DNA of 17,896 nt, taken from a virus. Below the pieces are notes generated by a model that ran no database searches, was not told the DNA's origin, and saw only the letters and a program-made list of their open reading frames with translations. The DNA lies in the UHGV virus genome UHGV-0103875; one strand, written 5' to 3'. The first letter of the stretch is position 1. The number at the start of each line of letters is the position of its first letter. Shown here in pieces: positions 4,703-11,234 of the stretch. Both the position numbers and the translations under genes were made by a program.

Positions 4703-7168
4703 TCAGAATCCTCCTTTCTTCTTGGATTGCGGTTCCTCGCGTTCACGGCGGCGCATTTCAGCAGACTGTTGGTCTGTGTCATAAATAGCGCCATTTGCCT
4801 GAATGCAATACACCGTGCCGGTATTGCCATGACGATTGAGACGAAGGATTAGTTCGGTTTCACCAGGTGGAACACTGTCATCAAAAGCACCTTCACGATG
4901 GATCCCCACCCAATAATCGCAATCCTGTTCAATCTGCCCTGTATCTCGTGAGTCACTTGGTAATGGGCGTTTATTGGTTCGGCTTTCCAGTGCGCGGTTA
5001 AGCTGTGTCAGAAGCACAACAACGCAATCAAGCTCTTTGGCAAGGTTCTTCAGTCCTTTGGTGATCATGCCGTAAGCAAGGTCGTTGCGATCGGCCTTTT
5101 CAGCGGTCATTAGTGTCAGGTAATCGACCAGAATCATGCCAACACATCCTTTTTCTCGCTTGATTCGACGGCTTTCGCTGACGATTTGAGCCAGAGATAA
5201 TCCCGGCGTGTCGTCGATGTAAAGCATGTCGATTTCACTCAAGCGATTGGCTGTTTCGATCGCCCTGTTGAAGTCACCATCGTAATCACCCTGATAGCCG
5301 TCATCAGCGTCATTTGTCGCCGGAAGGTAAAAAATATTCGGGTTAACACCAGACTTCTGCCCTACCAGTTTTTCCAGTATCTGGTCACCTGGCATTTCAA
5401 GGCTGAACATCAGAGCGGGCTTTTTCTCATGCACTGCGCAGTTGATTGCCATCTGGCTGTATAGCGTGGTGTTGTGGGTTAGAATGTATCCGTCAGTTGC
5501 ATACAAATGTCTCTCGTGGGATACCATGATGCAAATGCACTCTTCACGTCCAATATACTCAACCGACGTGATAACAGGCGCACTTGTTTTGATGCGTTTT
5601 GCAGTGAATTTTTGCTTCAGGCGTGGAGATTTTATGTGTGATAGAACCTCATCAGGCAACCTGATTGCGCAAATATGGGCATCCATACCTTTGCGCATTT
5701 CTCCCTTATAACTGAATTTCGGCTCCTGTTTGGTTGTCATACGACACACGCCACCAAGAGAATGCACCAGCCGCTTTACACCATCTGACAGGAACTTGCT
5801 TGCCGAGCTAAAGCGCAGGGCATTATTTCCTTCAACCCAACCATCGGTTTCAAGTAATCCGCATAGAACATCAATACGAGTTTGCTTATCAGCAGAAAAA
5901 ATAATATCCGGGATAATTTTAATCTCTGACATCCGGCCGTAGATACCAAGCCGTTGCATAACCCGCGTAAGAGATAATTTGCGGCTAAACTTGTGAGATA
6001 GGGAGTAATCGCAGCCAGAAACATGCCTGACTTCAATATCGTCACCCACTTCAGATCTTACTCGCTCAATGATGTATGGTTCCGTCATGCTGATTCGTGG
6101 CGTACCTGCAAGATTTCCATCGCCAAGTAACGCACCTAACAGCCATGGGCTAATCCCTAAATCAACAGGCAATCCGAAGTCACCGCTAATACCAGGAACA
6201 TGAATGCGGCTTTGATAGCGAACGCATTCCATCATGTCCCGTAGGCGGCAGGTGTCTACAACATCAACGCCACCGGTAATACGGTTACTATGAATTTCCC
6301 ACAAATGATCATCCGCGCAATCAACGGTTCTTCCGTCAGAGAACGTAACTCGGTAAATATCTCGCTCCCCTTGAGGAAAAACTCCAGACACGAATGATGG
6401 TTGTCCATCCACTGATGCTAGGGAATCTCCAACACATACGTCACGAAATGTTGTCCATGAACCATCAGCAAGCAAAATGCGTGAATTAAGCGGTTGCGCT
6501 TTCCCCATCTTAGGGCGAGCGCCAATGACGAACAGAGAGCCTTTCACCAGACCTTTCGGTGACAGCATCCTGTCCAGAGATGGGATCCCTGTGCTCATTC
6601 CTCGTTGTTCGCCTGACGGGTCAAATCGCTTCTCAAGGTCGCTAACCCAGTCTTCCATGACCTCACCAAATGAGCGAAGGCCGCGACGCGATCCGGTTTT
6701 TGCATGGTCTGTCAGTTGCGTGAAAATCGCCTGAATAGCTTCGTACTTCTGCGTCGCAGTCATTCCGTTGCGGGAATAGAGCAATTCCGTCGCTTCAGTC
6801 ATGCGGTTGATGGCGTAGCGTTCCATTGCGGTTTCGCGAACCTGCATTGCATAGGCAACGATGTTTGCGGCGCTTGCCGTGTTCTTTGCGATCTCAGCGA
6901 TATAAGCAAAACCGCCAACAGACGCCGTTAACGATTTACGCTCCAGTTCACCGAAAAGCGTCAGGCCATCTACTGGCTTTTGCTCCCGGTGCATTCTGGT
7001 TATTTCTTCGAAAAGGATTTTGTGTGGTCGGCTGTAAAATGAATCAGGCTTCAGCATCGCCAGAACTTTCTGGACGCGCTCACTGCTGTCATCATCCAGA
7101 AGCAATCCACCAATCACCGCCTGCTCTGCCTCGATGCTATGGGGCGGCGCATAAAAATTATCGGTCAT
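4703..7168 (-). CDS. DnaB-family replicative helicase (P22 gp12-like, replaces lambda P) interrupted by an intein; ORF track gives a GTG start at 7183, first ATG is at 7168
   Basis: N-terminus PPHSIEAEQAVIGGLLLDD…FYSRPHKILFEE…VGGFAYIAEIAKNTASAANI is colinear with remembered E. coli DnaB. Walker A GARPKMGK is split from TTLYSQMAINCAV…MFSLEMPG by 343 residues. C-terminal half has DnaB motifs (ILVDYLTLM, LTQLNRALESR, GQIEQDCDYW). Confidence 0.85.
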   Translation of the reverse strand: MTDNFYAPPHSIEAEQAVIGGLLLDDDSSERVQKVLAMLKPDSFYSRPHKILFEEITRMHREQKPVDGLTLFGELERKSLTASVGGFAYIAEIAKNTASAANIVAYAMQVRETAMERYAINRMTEATELLYSRNGMTATQKYEAIQAIFTQLTDHAKTGSRRGLRSFGEVMEDWVSDLEKRFDPSGEQRGMSTGIPSLDRMLSPKGLVKGSLFVIGARPKMGKAQPLNSRILLADGSWTTFRDVCVGDSLASVDGQPSFVSGVFPQGERDIYRVTFSDGRTVDCADDHLWEIHSNRITGGVDVVDTCRLRDMMECVRYQSRIHVPGISGDFGLPVDLGISPWLLGALLGDGNLAGTPRISMTEPYIIERVRSEVGDDIEVRHVSGCDYSLSHKFSRKLSLTRVMQRLGIYGRMSEIKIIPDIIFSADKQTRIDVLCGLLETDGWVEGNNALRFSSASKFLSDGVKRLVHSLGGVCRMTTKQEPKFSYKGEMRKGMDAHICAIRLPDEVLSHIKSPRLKQKFTAKRIKTSAPVITSVEYIGREECICIMVSHERHLYATDGYILTHNTTLYSQMAINCAVHEKKPALMFSLEMPGDQILEKLVGQKSGVNPNIFYLPATNDADDGYQGDYDGDFNRAIETANRLSEIDMLYIDDTPGLSLAQIVSESRRIKREKGCVGMILVDYLTLMTAEKADRNDLAYGMITKGLKNLAKELDCVVVLLTQLNRALESRTNKRPLPSDSRDTGQIEQDCDYWVGIHREGAFDDSVPPGETELILRLNRHGNTGTVYCIQANGAIYDTDQQSAEMRRREREEPQSKKKGGF
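5471..6499 (-). mobile_element. Intein (343 aa) with LAGLIDADG homing-endonuclease domain, inserted in the helicase P-loop; candidate class 3 (Ala1, W-C-T triad)
   Basis: Insert begins AQPLNSRILLADGSW immediately after GARPKMGK and ends …ATDGYILTHN followed by Thr (HN/T C-terminal splice junction). Two LAGLIDADG-type motifs inside (WLLGALLGDGNL and LCGLLETDGWV). Block B has …DDHLW, block F …CICIMV, block G GYILTHN, consistent with a Trp/Cys/Thr class 3 arrangement. Flanks rejoin to GARPKMGK-TT, restoring a canonical GKT P-loop. Confidence 0.75.
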
Positions 7169-8057
7169 CGTGTTCACCCTCACGAACTTTCAGGTAGGTA
7201 TTATCGTTAAGCAGGAAATCAAATCCCTTTTTGTGCCAGACGGTTCCGCGCTGATGGTTTTGGCGCTCTTCGAACATCCATCGGCAATTTTCGCCTACGT
7301 AGCTCAAATAATTTCTCCAGTCCTGCATCGTGAACCCATGCCCGTCAAGCTGGCGGGTTATCACTCCGGCTTTGCGCCAGAACGTTCGGATCTGGTTTTT
7401 ACGCTTGTCATTCAGTGCGCGGATTTTTGGCGCTTCAGGAAGGATTTCGTGGTAAGCATCGACAACATCCTGACAGCTAACGGAAGGTTTTTTCTTGTCA
7501 GACTTTTTGTCTGCTGCGGTACTCTCTAATACGTCAGTATTAGAGATAATATTATTATATTCTTTATCTGTGGTAATTTGCTGGTAATCTGCTGGTACAG
7601 TATTGCTTGCAGGCATTGGTATTGCTGGCTTTGAGGTGGTAATTTGCTGGTAATCTGCTGGTACAAAATTTGACTGATAATCGTCATATTTCTCTACCGA
7701 GAAAACTGAGAATTTACCGTGTGAAACCCAGTCAATCATGCCGAGTTTTTTGAACTTTCTAAGCAGGTACTGAACGCGATCTGGTTTGAGTCCTGTTTCA
7801 AACGCCAGAGAGTTTCTACCGCCAAGTAGCTTCCCTCTGCCTACCAGAATTTCTCCTGCGTCAGTCATTACATACTCAGGCGTATGCTTTGCTTTGAGGA
7901 TTAAGTGAACCCACAGATGCGCAGCTTCTGCGTCCTTGTAAAACGGCACATCCATAATTTTACGGTGCAGCAAGGCATACCCCTTACCGCTGCTTTGATG
8001 CGGTTGTTGTAGCCTTCTGGCCTCTCTGGCTTCGGCTAGATTAGATATGTTACTCAT
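7158..8057 (-). CDS. Replication initiator (lambda O / P22 gp18 functional analogue) containing the origin iterons
   Basis: 299 aa; position between cII and the helicase. Central peptide repeat [10 protein letters not shown] x2 is encoded by the DNA iterons. RBS AGGAGAAAGG before ATG 8057. Confidence 0.7.
7541..7667. repeat. Candidate replication origin: direct iterons (TGCTGGTAA/C-type, two copies of a ~30-bp unit GTGGTAATTTGCTGGTAATCTGCTGGTACA) with adjacent AT-rich tract
   Basis: Unit GGTAATTTGCTGGTAATCTGCTGGTACA occurs at ~7573-7600 and ~7638-7665; each holds two TGCTGGTA sub-repeats; a degenerate copy ATTGCTGGC at ~7621. AT-rich stretch AGAGATAATATTATTATATTCTTTATCTG at 7541-7569 lies on the downstream side in the O reading direction, as in lambda ori. 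Confidence 0.65.
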
Positions 8058-8230
8058 GACCTTTCTCCTTCTGCATCAGCTTCACTTTTTCCAACTCAGC
8101 CCGGAATCGACCAGGCTGCTTGAAGCTGGACAGGAAGCGATCACGTAGTATGTGTTTGTGAATTTTGTCCTGGTAAGGACTGAGTTGTTTTGTCATAATG
8201 ACTCCTGTGGATTGATCCAGTCTTTCTACA

Positions 8231-8509
8231 TCAGGCCTCGAAGAATTCGCCGTTCTTCGGGGCTTTTTCTTTTGTCAGCATTCTGGCTACTTGCTTAGCC
8301 AGTTCCGCCAACTCCTCGTCTTCAACACCCCATTCCAGCACAGCCAGAAGCATGGCCATCTTTGGGATAAAGCTGTCTTTCCATCGCGAAATTTGCGATT
8401 CATTAATCCCTAACGCGTCGGCAACCTTTCGCTGACCACGTACAGCAATTCGATTCAGGATGTTGCTTGTAATTGCATTCGCTTTCTTGCGAGTACTTGT
8501 AAGTTGCAT
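8231..8509 (-). CDS. cII: CII-like transcriptional activator (divergent from lambda CII); ORF-track N-terminal extension rejected
   Basis: From ATG 8509: [66 protein letters not shown]… shares SQISRWK and LLAVLEWGV with lambda CII. RBS AAGGAAATA upstream. Confidence 0.8.
8244..8282 (+). terminator. Plus-strand intrinsic terminator inside the cII 3' end; candidate terminator of an oop-like antisense RNA
   Basis: GCCTCGAAGAA-TTCGCCG-TTCTTCGGGGC followed by TTTTTCTTTT on the plus strand, antisense to the cII C-terminus, positionally equivalent to the lambda oop terminator. Confidence 0.5.
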
Positions 8510-8589
8510 ATGTAAGTATTTCCTTAGATAACAATTGATTGAATGTATGCAAATAAATGCATACACCATAGGTGTGGTTTAATTTGATG

Positions 8590-8620
8590 CCCTTTTTCAG
8601 GGCTGGAATGTGTAAGAGCG
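8590..8620 (-). promoter_or_regulatory. nutR (boxA CGCTCTTA, boxB GCCCTGAAAAAGGGC) for N antitermination
   Basis: Plus strand carries GCCCTTTTTCAGGGC (8590-8604) and TAAGAGCG (8613-8620), the reverse complements of lambda nutR boxB and boxA, between cro and cII. Confidence 0.85.
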
Positions 8621-8627
8621 TGGTTAT

Positions 8628-8837
<210 letters not shown>

Positions 8838-8854
8838 TTAGTACATGCAACCAT

Positions 8855-8918
8855 TATCACCGCCAGAGGTAAAATAGTCAACACGCACGGTGTTAGATAT
8901 TTATCCCTTGCGGTGATA
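8855..8918. promoter_or_regulatory. Lambda right operator OR1-OR2-OR3 with divergent promoters PR (toward cro) and PRM (toward cI)
   Basis: OR1 TATCACCGCCAGAGGTA (8855-8871), OR2 CAACACGCACGGTGTTA (8879-8895), OR3 TATCCCTTGCGGTGATA (8902-8918); 17-bp lambda operator half-site consensus TATCACCG. Confidence 0.9.
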
Positions 8919-8925
8919 GATTTAA

Positions 8926-9642
<717 letters not shown>

Positions 9643-9792
9643 TGGGCAAGGTGTTCTGGTCGGCGCATAGCTGGTGAAAAAATTATTTAATGCGGTGTAT
9701 TGGCTGATTGTAACCCCATGTAACATCTTGCCGTCACCATTTCGGTGGTTAGATTTTTAATAAAAAAAAACAAATGTATAGCAAGGTTTTTT

Positions 9793-10272
9793 ATGGATAA
9801 AATTAATTACCCACCCCTGTTTGAGCCAGGGTTCCATGACATGGATGAAGCTGGATTAAAATCGTATTGTGTCGATTGCTTTCCTTCATCATCCAGGCGA
9901 GGCATGCTATACTGTAATTTTATACAGCTACTCGAATCTATTCGAGAATTATCTGCTCAATATGGCTGTTTTACAGAAATATGGGTTGATGGTTCATACA
10001 CCACGTCTAAACCAGAGCCTGATGATATTGATATTTTGTTGGTATGTGACTATAGCAATATAAACTCAATACCTGTCATGCTTCGGGGCCGCGTCGATAA
10101 TTTGCTTGACCGAAACTACATCAAACAAAACTACAAAATTGATGTCCTACTACTCATGAAGAATTTAGATGACCCTAACTATGATTATGAGTACTGGCGT
10201 AGTTACTGGCGCGGTTGGTTTGGTTTTGATCGCAGTGAAAACCCGAAAGGGTTAGTGAGGATTTTTTTATGA
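9793..10272 (+). CDS. Hypothetical protein, gene A of the rex-slot cassette (~159 aa); possible minimal nucleotidyltransferase-fold protein
   Basis: First ATG at 9793 with AAGG six nt upstream; ORF track extends to GTG 9745. Contains WVDGSYTTSKPEPDDIDILLV, fitting the Pol-beta NTase pattern hG[GS]-x9-13-DhDh. Also CVDC…C. AT-rich compared with the flanking cI. Not RexA. Confidence 0.55.
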   Translation: MDKINYPPLFEPGFHDMDEAGLKSYCVDCFPSSSRRGMLYCNFIQLLESIRELSAQYGCFTEIWVDGSYTTSKPEPDDIDILLVCDYSNINSIPVMLRGRVDNLLDRNYIKQNYKIDVLLLMKNLDDPNYDYEYWRSYWRGWFGFDRSENPKGLVRIFL

Positions 10273-11201
10273 ATGATAAATCAATGTTTAAAAATTGCGA
10301 TAAACGCATTGATTTCATTCAAAAAGAAGTCGATGCAATGAAGCAAAACAAAACCAGGTCCTTTGCTGACATGCTTCTTTATCGCTCCATGGATTCTCAT
10401 CTGAGCGATTTGAAGGCCGAAAAATTAAAGCAAGATAGTCGGCACCCACTTATCGATTTTTTTGAGCTGCGGCTGAAAGGCTCTGAGGTTGACTTTGGCT
10501 CTATTCCTTTAGAGCTGCTTGGGGCTATTTCAACAAATCTTGCAGCGCTAATACAAAGAGCAACACACAAAATTGCCTCAGGCAAGGACTCAAAAAAAGT
10601 TCCCTACGACGTGAAAAGCTCCTTAAACCTCAGGCTGGCTGATTTATCCCCTGGGTCTACAAAATTGGGCGTCACCTTCTCTACAGGAATAGCAGAATTA
10701 GTAGAAACAGTACCCAGCAAGGCTGTAAAAGGCATATTCGATTTGTTGTTAAGCGATGACGACAACAACTTCATGAATCACGTCGCTGAAATTGGATACA
10801 ATTCCACTGTAAGCCTTAAGAGAATCGTAGAGGAATGCGATAAACACAACTTAACATTTGATGCAAGTTGGACCGGTCCATTTAGTAATGGCACCAAGGT
10901 GGCAACTATTGACTCCAATAAAATTAAGTACTTGGTGAGTAGACTTACATCAACCATTTCATCCCCTCCCATTACTGAAACGGTTACAGGCGAACTGGTC
11001 GTTCTATCCAAATATGGGAAGCTGGAGCTTGATGTTGGTGGTGAACATTTAAAGGCTTCCTATCCGATTGAAATGCTAGATTTAATACAAAAAAAACACA
11101 AGGTCGGACAGATTGTTTCTCTTTTAGTGGAGACTACTGAGATTCACAATGATCGCATAGGTCTGTACCGTAAAAACCATCTTGTTAAATCGGTTCTTTA
11201 A
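10269..11201 (+). CDS. Hypothetical protein, gene B of the rex-slot cassette (310 aa), no recognised domain
   Basis: ATG overlaps the gene A stop (ATGA). Soluble-looking, Lys/Ser/Leu-rich, AT-rich codons. No RexB-like transmembrane pattern and no HEPN Rx4-6H motif found by eye. Confidence 0.6.
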   Translation: MNDKSMFKNCDKRIDFIQKEVDAMKQNKTRSFADMLLYRSMDSHLSDLKAEKLKQDSRHPLIDFFELRLKGSEVDFGSIPLELLGAISTNLAALIQRATHKIASGKDSKKVPYDVKSSLNLRLADLSPGSTKLGVTFSTGIAELVETVPSKAVKGIFDLLLSDDDNNFMNHVAEIGYNSTVSLKRIVEECDKHNLTFDASWTGPFSNGTKVATIDSNKIKYLVSRLTSTISSPPITETVTGELVVLSKYGKLELDVGGEHLKASYPIEMLDLIQKKHKVGQIVSLLVETTEIHNDRIGLYRKNHLVKSVL

Positions 11202-11207
11202 TATCTC

Positions 11208-11234
11208 ACCCGGCCACCGCGCCGGGTTTTCTTT
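11208..11234 (+). terminator. Rho-independent terminator closing the cI-cassette transcript (tIMM-equivalent)
   Basis: ACCCGGC-CACCGC-GCCGGGT followed by TTTTCTTTG immediately after the gene B stop. Confidence 0.7.

Follow-up and report, generated by a model that had tools for sequence, protein, structure and literature searches.

Sequence features of a probable replication origin within the O-like initiator gene of virus genome UHGV-0103875

Main finding

The window analysed here is a stretch of 17,896 nt from virus genome UHGV-0103875. It has a gene on the minus strand (positions 7158–8057) for an O-like replication initiator of 299 aa, and within this gene are two blocks of short direct repeats, an AT-rich tract and a perfect palindrome. 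These three elements very probably form the replication origin of a lambdoid replicon of the HK022/HK620/VT2-Sakai type, which is situated inside its own initiator gene. An origin of this type is already known as a sequence-based prediction (1999–2004) and is annotated in GenBank. As the same 30-mers were annotated as iterons in public phage records more than 20 years ago, the finding is sound but not new. The refinements consist of a 2 x 3 arrangement of phased repeats, a fixed spacing of 66 bp, the freezing of synonymous sites, a covarying palindrome shared with lambda, and natural chimeras.

Repeat blocks

The sequence GTGGTAATTTGCTGGTAATCTGCTGGTACA is present twice on the plus strand, at positions 7570–7599 and 7636–7665. 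The two copies are 100% identical and are 66 bp apart from start to start, in agreement with a first-pass annotation of this DNA that had described a unit of about 30 bp occurring twice at a distance of about 65 bp. A repeat search shows this 30-nt sequence to be the longest exact direct repeat in the window; the longest repeats in 20 mononucleotide shuffles are 12–15 nt. When read in the direction of the O gene, the 30-mer consists of three 11-bp direct repeats, TGTACCAGCAG, ATTACCAGCAA and ATTACCAC. The total is six 11-bp units in two triplets, and the core of the unit is TACCAGCA. Block 1, the first in the O direction, is at 7636–7665 and block 2 at 7570–7599 (both minus strand); they are separated by a spacer of 36 bp (7600–7635, minus strand), which has a fixed length and a free sequence. 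The blocks correspond to nt 393–422 and 459–488 of the O gene, i.e., the six units are within nt 393–488.

The first-pass annotation had counted four iterons and a degenerate fifth and had taken the repeat unit as 9-mers. The repeats themselves are borne out, but the count was too low and the unit is an 11-bp direct repeat. The supposed fifth iteron, AAAGCCAGCAA, is located in the spacer, where it varies freely among relatives. Exact matches to the 11-mer KTACCAGCARA number four in the window, and all of them are in the region of the 30-mer repeat. When up to one mismatch is allowed there are eight matches where 1.15 are expected, and eight is reached in none of 200 shuffles. The repeats are real and far beyond chance. 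A scan of the 17,896-nt window with KTACCAGCARA did not find a second cluster of the motif. Inverted symmetry was looked for inside the repeat blocks and none was found, so that dyad iterons of 18–19 bp of the lambda type are not present in them.

Constraint at the DNA level

The DNA repeat is mirrored in the O-like protein, as had been proposed, with the same 10-aa peptide found twice in the 299-aa product. A length of 11 bp does not divide into whole codons, and the unit is therefore translated in three frames (VPA / YQQ / ITT). Divergence was compared among 10 relatives that share the TACCAGCA core and are diverged elsewhere. Third-codon-position divergence is lowest in repeat block 2 (0.01) and repeat block 1 (0.07), and rises to 0.32 in the spacer, 0.33 in the N-terminal domain and 0.44 in the C-terminal domain. 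In block 2, 27 of 30 sites are invariant among these relatives. The spacer has a mean divergence per site of 0.29, with 8 of 36 sites invariant. In a relative with a different core, L066, a G to A change is present in the core of all full copies and gives TACCAACA, which is a concerted change. This pattern of substitutions indicates that the constraint on the repeats is at the level of the DNA and not of the peptide. The 10-aa peptide repeat may be a by-product of DNA repeats placed in a disordered linker that is tolerant of sequence.

AT-rich tract and palindrome

An AT-rich tract (7547–7569, minus strand) follows block 2 in the reading direction of O. It is a presumed DNA unwinding element, given its low duplex stability and its presence at the same position in relatives and in lambda. 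The segment 7541–7569 is 86% A+T, and the 30-mer at 7538–7567, with 90% A+T, is tied for the most A+T-rich in the window. By nearest-neighbour energy the 40-mer at 7538–7577 is the least stable duplex in the whole window. These values uphold the earlier observation of an AT-rich tract on the downstream side. A similar AT-rich run is found at the equivalent position in all relatives compared and in lambda.

Just past the AT-rich tract is a perfect palindrome, TCTCTAATAC-TGAC-GTATTAGAGA (positions 7523–7546), which the first-pass annotation did not include. It has arms of 10 bp (7523–7532 and 7537–7546) and a loop of 4 nt. A palindrome with perfect arms of 9–10 bp and a 4-nt loop is present in 89 of 89 loci, and its arms have at least eight different sequences across them. 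Covariation was analyzed in an alignment of 11 types, and 500 shuffles and slid partners served as controls. In this alignment 97.3% of cells are paired; all 107 paired cells are Watson-Crick and there are no G-U pairs. Nine of the ten pairs have changed on both sides, with two-sided changes in 28 cells, and there are no pairs changed on one side only. The covariation value is 0.742, compared with 0.171 for the shuffles (none of the 500 reaches 0.742) and 0.05–0.16 for the slid partners. The sequence of the arms tracks neither the N-terminal nor the C-terminal type of the protein.

The strictly Watson-Crick nature of the compensation speaks for a DNA element and against an RNA hairpin. Since the arms follow neither terminus type, a structural role fits the palindrome better than a sequence-specific protein site. 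A scan with Rfam detected two tRNAs only, and no RNA family at the origin. A search of annotations and of the searchable literature did not find a description of the compensatory evolution of this palindrome or of its lambda counterpart.

Conservation in related genes

O genes were taken for comparison from nine phages and from 80 viral contigs, and 55 distinct two-block genes were obtained. All 55 have the 2 x 3 units with 66 bp from block to block, followed by an AT-rich run and then by a palindrome. At least five core types are found across relatives, and the layout is kept at protein identities of 43–66%. The core is TACCAGCA in this window, HK022 and HK620, TACCAACA in L066, TGTCCAACG in Sf6, ST64T and ENT47670, TGTCCAGCC in Klebsiella phage Chronis, and TGCCAACA in KPC2phi6.1 and Eho59. 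A more distant homolog, from a Pseudomonas phage (27% protein identity), carries about five phased 11-bp ACCAGCA units in a single array, again followed by an AT-rich run.

Between genes, the distance in repeat sequence is correlated with that in the N-terminus (Mantel r = 0.78), compared with r = 0.15 for the C-terminus. There are no gene pairs with a similar N-terminus but different repeats, and 221 with the same C-terminus and different repeats. The correlation between spacer and N-terminus, at r = 0.90, is above that of the repeats. The correlation of N-terminus and repeats was rejected as evidence of binding, as the unconstrained spacer correlates even better. It is confounded by physical linkage, and the analysis therefore relies on synonymous-site conservation and on chimeras.

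One such chimera is Erwinia phage Eho59, which has an N-terminus, repeats, AT-rich tract and palindrome like those of KPC2phi6.1, joined to a C-terminus of the lambda O type. This C-terminus has 70% identity to residues 178–299 of lambda O (E = 6e-63), and the next gene encodes a lambda-P-like loader. The domain swap indicates that the origin-binding half of lambda O has a functional equivalent in the N-terminal half plus the repeats, and that the choice of partner, helicase or loader, is linked to the C-terminal half. The HK022/HK620-type replicon is common, with the full O gene in 227 of 5,426 complete E. coli genomes. About 170 of the 5,426 match nt 1–410 of the query only (window 7158–7567). 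This partial match comprises the C-terminal half, the palindrome and the AT-rich tract, and it stops at the border of the repeats.

The copy number of the 66-bp unit varies, with proteins of 277, 299, 321 and 343 aa. A single block is found in L049 and in a prophage on the chromosome of O111:H8 strain 2009C-3675; L047 and many proteins of 321 aa have three, and a protein of 343 aa has four. In the genes L047, P0001, P0002, P0015 and P0022 the repeated units are identical within a gene and different between genes, which points to independent and recent expansions of the unit. The one-, three- and four-block variants imply that two blocks are not strictly required, or that some of these prophages are defective.

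Initiator protein

AlphaFold modeling of the O-like protein from the single sequence gave a mean pLDDT of 42.6 and was unusable. The model used was based on an alignment of 97 sequences, gathered by a search seeded with the distant Pseudomonas homolog. It displays an N-terminal domain (aa ~30–128, pLDDT ~90) with a predicted winged-helix fold, a linker, and a helical C-terminal domain (aa ~190–299) that is modeled with confidence. The linker (aa ~130–189) is predicted to be disordered, with pLDDT < 50, and is the part encoded by the repeats, the AT-rich tract and the palindrome.

A BLASTP comparison of the O-like protein with lambda O showed no similarity. The Pfam family Phage_rep_O (PF04492) does not match the O-like protein even at E <= 10, and it matches lambda O at 5.7e-36. 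Comparison by hhalign of a 37-sequence N-terminal alignment with lambda O gave E = 0.53, which is not significant. Lambda O does match the PHROG 345 profile of the O-like family with E = 5e-17, but this profile may contain chimeric members. A scan for relatives of lambda O with which to build a second profile returned only copies of ~100% identity, and hence no usable diversity. The family profile was also used to search PDB sequences, with no meaningful match. On these comparisons, the N-terminal domain is not securely homologous to lambda O.

Neighbouring genes

In the position of lambda P there is a gene for a DnaB-family replicative helicase (4703–7168, minus strand), the first 11 nt of which are shared with the 3' end of O. 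It matches Pfam DnaB and DnaB_C and NCBIfam phage_DnaB (1.5e-166), and these matches confirm that a DnaB-type helicase replaces P. The encoded protein is 99% identical to the P protein of VT2-Sakai on both sides of an intein insertion.

The intein is 343 aa in length (5471–6499) and is a clean insertion in the Walker A motif, between GARPKMGK and TT. It shows Hint and LAGLIDADG signatures. None of 50,697 phage records contains the intein DNA. It occurs in 18 of the 5,426 E. coli genomes, which annotate the helicase gene as two separate domain proteins. Class 3 inteins have no N-terminal Cys, Ser or Thr nucleophile and have a WCT motif of Trp at B12, Cys at F4 and Thr at G5 (PMC3196547). Inspection by eye shows that the intein starts with Ala, that GRTVDCADDHLW puts His at B10 and Trp at B12, that LTHN followed by T gives Thr at G5, and that there is a Cys in EECICIMV, presumed to be block F. 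By these sequence motifs the helicase intein is a candidate for a class-3-like assignment.

Upstream of O are a DUF2740 gene similar to orf48, then cII, cro and cI. The lambda immunity region (8507–9673) has 98.97% identity to lambda 37196–38362 (cI-oR-cro). It contains cro (8628–8828, minus strand; Pfam Cro) and cI (8929–9642, plus strand; Pfam Peptidase_S24 and HTH_3), with oR between the two genes. The first-pass annotation had proposed a non-lambda replicon paired with lambda immunity. The identity of the cI-oR-cro region supports the pairing, but the combination is not a new one, as the replicon is that of HK022, HK620 and VT2-Sakai. At the position of rexAB, downstream of cI, two ORFs correspond to the two components of the PADLOC candidate defence system PDC-M63. 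Genes for tRNA-Thr and tRNA-Asn are present at 632–787.

Proposed mechanism

Binding of O to the repeats and firing of the origin are functions predicted from sequence. The winged-helix N-terminal domain of the O-like protein would bind the six helically phased 11-bp direct repeats with their TACCAGCA core. As the triplets are 66 bp apart, or about six helical turns, both would be on roughly the same face of the DNA. The resulting nucleoprotein complex would strain and then open the adjacent AT-rich tract (7547–7569). At the margin of the opened bubble, the palindrome (7523–7546) may form a hairpin or cruciform that serves as a structural element of the DNA. Recruitment of the phage's own DnaB-type helicase would fall to the C-terminal domain of O and would replace the route by way of lambda P and host DnaB.

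A more specific scheme may be put forward only tentatively. Single winged-helix domains would bind head to tail on the two phased triplets, in a geometry unlike that of lambda, and the hairpin or cruciform would mark the site of loading of the phage DnaB-type helicase without a loader of the P or DnaC type.

Alternative explanations

The DNA repeat could be no more than what a recent tandem duplication left behind in a flexible linker, with any selection on the peptide and with no function of the DNA itself. The 30-mer does encode an exact peptide repeat in a region predicted to be disordered, and the 66-bp unit does expand and contract in nature, as the proteins of 277–343 aa show. However, the 11-bp sub-repeat is out of frame with itself and encodes three different peptides. 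Synonymous sites in the blocks are nearly invariant, whereas third positions in the flanking domains have diverged by 33–44% and the spacer in the same linker is free to change. The 2 x 3 layout and the 66-bp spacing are kept across different cores at 43–66% protein identity, and a phased 11-bp array is present even in the Pseudomonas phage homolog. A recent duplication cannot explain repeats whose layout is kept across such diverged relatives, and this explanation is very improbable. In lambda, in-frame deletions of ori abolish replication, yet the protein still complements in trans (PMC6022878).

It is also unlikely, though slightly less so, that the repeats are sites for a role other than that of an origin and that the true origin is elsewhere. 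Such a role could be autoregulation by O or attenuation of helicase expression, control of copy number by pairing of arrays, or binding of a host protein. The array is on the pR transcript and upstream of the helicase gene, and plasmid iterons offer a precedent in that they serve both initiation and control. Against this, the least stable duplex and a palindrome of conserved structure are directly after the repeats, as in the experimentally defined ori-lambda, and the window has no second motif cluster that was detected. Moreover, Eho59 keeps the N-terminus, repeats, AT-rich tract and palindrome together and swaps the part that recruits the helicase. For the palindrome alone, there is very little chance that it works at the RNA level, as a hairpin of the O message with a role in processing, pausing or translation, and not as a DNA element of the origin. 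It is transcribed within the O message and its pairing is maintained by compensatory changes, as would be the case for an RNA stem, but a helix in which 107 of 107 paired cells are Watson-Crick, with no G-U pairs and no one-sided changes, is unusual for RNA and is what a DNA palindrome would show. In addition, lambda has an equivalent inverted repeat beside the AT-rich segment of its origin, and the arm sequence is independent of both protein termini. An origin made up of the repeats, the AT-rich tract and the palindrome is the preferred explanation.

Significance

The replicon drives the replication of medically important prophages that carry Shiga toxin, among them VT2-Sakai (Sp5), in which the dosage of the toxin gene is amplified by phage replication. 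The natural domain-swap chimeras point to which half of O reads the DNA and which recruits the helicase. With six defined sites, their phasing, an unwinding tract, a palindrome and chimeras at hand, a mini-replicon or footprinting experiment is easy to design.

Comparison with known systems

The O gene is 99.6–99.8% identical in DNA sequence to those of VT2-Sakai, Stx1 converting phage, Stx2 phage 86, CP-1639, mEp235 and many others. Over 299 aa, the protein has identities of 97.7% to HK022, 98.0% to HK620 and 98.7–99.7% to VT2-Sakai and CP-1639. The VT2-Sakai record (AP000422.1) has two misc_binding features, 'ori iteron 1' and 'ori iteron 2', which map exactly to block 1 (7636–7665) and block 2 (7570–7599). 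The HK620 record (NC_002730) has a two-piece rep_origin over O nt 393–488, the same span as both blocks, and in the Sf6 record the equivalent region is annotated as a putative rep_origin. The same two 30-mers occupy the same places in the gene in HK022, HK620, VT2-Sakai (Sp5), Stx2 phage 86, CP-1639 and mEp235; a single mismatch, in block 2, sets HK022 apart, and the origins are otherwise essentially the same as that of the window. The AT-rich tract, the palindrome and the downstream DnaB-type helicase of the HK022/HK620/VT2-Sakai group are also as in the window. In the window the module is beside lambda immunity, and its helicase gene has an intein that is absent from the phage records. The published biochemistry of O and origin in Stx phages concerns lambda-type O only (PMC7466680). 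In the searchable literature an experimental test of the HK022/HK620/VT2-Sakai-type origin was not found, and the statements present there are based on sequence.

Sf6, ST64T and phage L belong to the same family at ~65% identity, with TGTCCAACGGA repeats in gene 18 or 43. They have the 2 x 3 layout, 66-bp spacing, AT-rich tract and palindrome of the window, but their core is TGTCCAACG in place of TACCAGCA and the N-terminal domain has diverged. From the palindrome onward, the C-terminal half of the Sf6 protein is nearly identical to that of the window. A genome paper of 2020 took six imprecise 11-bp repeats (TGTCCAACGGA) in gene 18 of phage L to be the likely origin, and described four repeats of ~20 bp in P22 gene 18 (PMC8022706).

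Lambda has iterons, an AT-rich run and an inverted repeat with 12-bp arms and a 4-nt loop in the middle of the gene for its 299-aa O protein. Its four 18-bp iteron units are each an inverted repeat to which two O proteins bind, and an AT-rich region adjoins them (PMC6022878). The lambda iterons are at nt 349–433 of a 900-nt O gene, a gene position nearly equal to that of the repeats in the window (nt 393–488). The order of repeats, AT-rich tract and palindrome with a 4-nt loop supports the earlier proposal of an ori-lambda architecture with a different iteron sequence. Both origins are in the linker-coding middle of the gene for an initiator whose N-terminal domain binds DNA and whose C-terminal domain recruits the partner, these being predicted functions for the protein of the window. 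The window differs from lambda in that it has six 11-bp direct repeats in two triplets, whereas the lambda iterons are dyad-symmetric, so that the binding geometry of lambda cannot simply carry over. The partner is also different, i.e., the phage's own DnaB-type helicase in the window and P with host DnaB in lambda.

Iteron origins of plasmids have a winged-helix Rep protein, helix-phased direct repeats and an adjacent AT-rich unwinding element. Their iterons are typically 17–22 bp and are outside the rep gene. The window is similar to these plasmids in its phased direct repeats, its predicted winged-helix initiator and its AT-rich neighbour. It is unlike them in that its units are 11 bp and are inside the coding sequence of the initiator.

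Variation of the repeats in natural initiator genes

The 66-bp unit of the predicted origin, consisting of one block (a 30-nt repeat of three 11-bp units) and its spacer, differs in copy number among natural O genes, some of which are variants with one, three or four blocks. These variants come from viral loci L047 and L049, homologous O proteins P0001 and P0002-P0027, and match H122 of the E. coli genome search (NZ_CP077531.1). The one-block variant encodes 277 aa and includes an O111:H8 prophage, the three-block variant (321 aa) is present in many E. coli, E. albertii and Salmonella, and the four-block variant encodes 343 aa. In the variants examined, the 66-bp units are identical inside any one gene and different from gene to gene, a pattern that points to independent expansions.

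A natural chimeric initiator is found in Erwinia phage vB_EhrS_59 (locus L010, coordinates 686-1636). Its front part combines an N-terminal domain of the HK022 family with TGCCA(A/T)C repeats in a 2 x 3 arrangement, and also carries an AT tract and a palindrome. This part is fused to a C-terminus that displays 70% identity to lambda O 178-299. The gene that follows encodes a lambda-P-like helicase loader, replacing the DnaB-type helicase. In addition, approximately 170 complete E. coli genomes match O only over the C-terminal half up to the AT tract (window 7158-7567), and the match stops at the start of the repeats. This edge marks a recurrent mosaic junction at the predicted origin.

The locus of Pseudomonas phage Orisa01 (L173) encodes a distant homolog with 27% protein identity. 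Its array region, at positions 700-790, is a single array of about five phased 11-bp units that have ACCAGCA as their core, and an AT-rich run comes next; the palindrome and the second block are both absent from this locus. Where the final unit passes into the AT run, the sequence (AACCAC/AATAAAGAA) is similar to that of the window (TTACCAC/AGATAAAGAA).

Intein in the helicase gene

The helicase gene (4703-7168) contains an intein of 343 aa on the minus strand (positions 5471-6499), with Hint and LAGLIDADG Pfam matches. Within this DnaB-type helicase, the insertion point falls exactly in the Walker A motif, i.e., GARPKMGK/AQPLNS...GYILTHN/TT, and the helicase on either side shows 99% identity to the P protein of VT2-Sakai, which is intein-free. 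The first intein residue is Ala. As read by eye on the translation, His is at B10 and Trp at B12 in the stretch GRTVDCADDHLW, and Thr is at G5 at the intein end (LTHN); a Cys is present in the stretch EECICIMV. These residues fit a class 3-like signature by the criteria of PMC3196547, and the sequence may represent a class 3 intein.

The intein DNA (window 5470-6510) has zero megablast matches among 50,697 phage records. Of 5,426 complete E. coli genomes, 18 carry it at ≥99% identity, every time on the chromosome. In these genomes, the RefSeq annotation lists the interrupted helicase as two separate "domain-containing" proteins, and the intein therefore goes unrecognised there.

Other features of the window

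Two adjacent tRNA genes, tRNA-Thr (TGT) and tRNA-Asn (GTT), are located inside the prophage on the minus strand (positions 632-787). Between cII and O, a 33-nt stretch (positions 8189-8221) has 94% identity to lambda. The stretch falls at the location for which PMC3349717 describes 33 conserved base pairs, at the promoter and the 5' end of oop. Also between cII and O is a 48-aa ORF on the minus strand (positions 8050-8196) with a match to DUF2740 (8.9e-29). It shares 8 nt with the start of O, and its counterparts are orf48 of HK022 and hkaW of HK620.

Lambda homology in the window ends at position 9673 and picks up again at 11208. In lambda, the genes downstream of cI are rexA-rexB. In the window, the same position is occupied by two overlapping ORFs on the plus strand, at 9745-10272 (PADLOC M63A, 2.4e-41; also Pfam DUF6932) and 10269-11201 (PADLOC M63B, 7.5e-45). 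The pair thereby matches the two components of PDC-M63, a candidate defence system in PADLOC.
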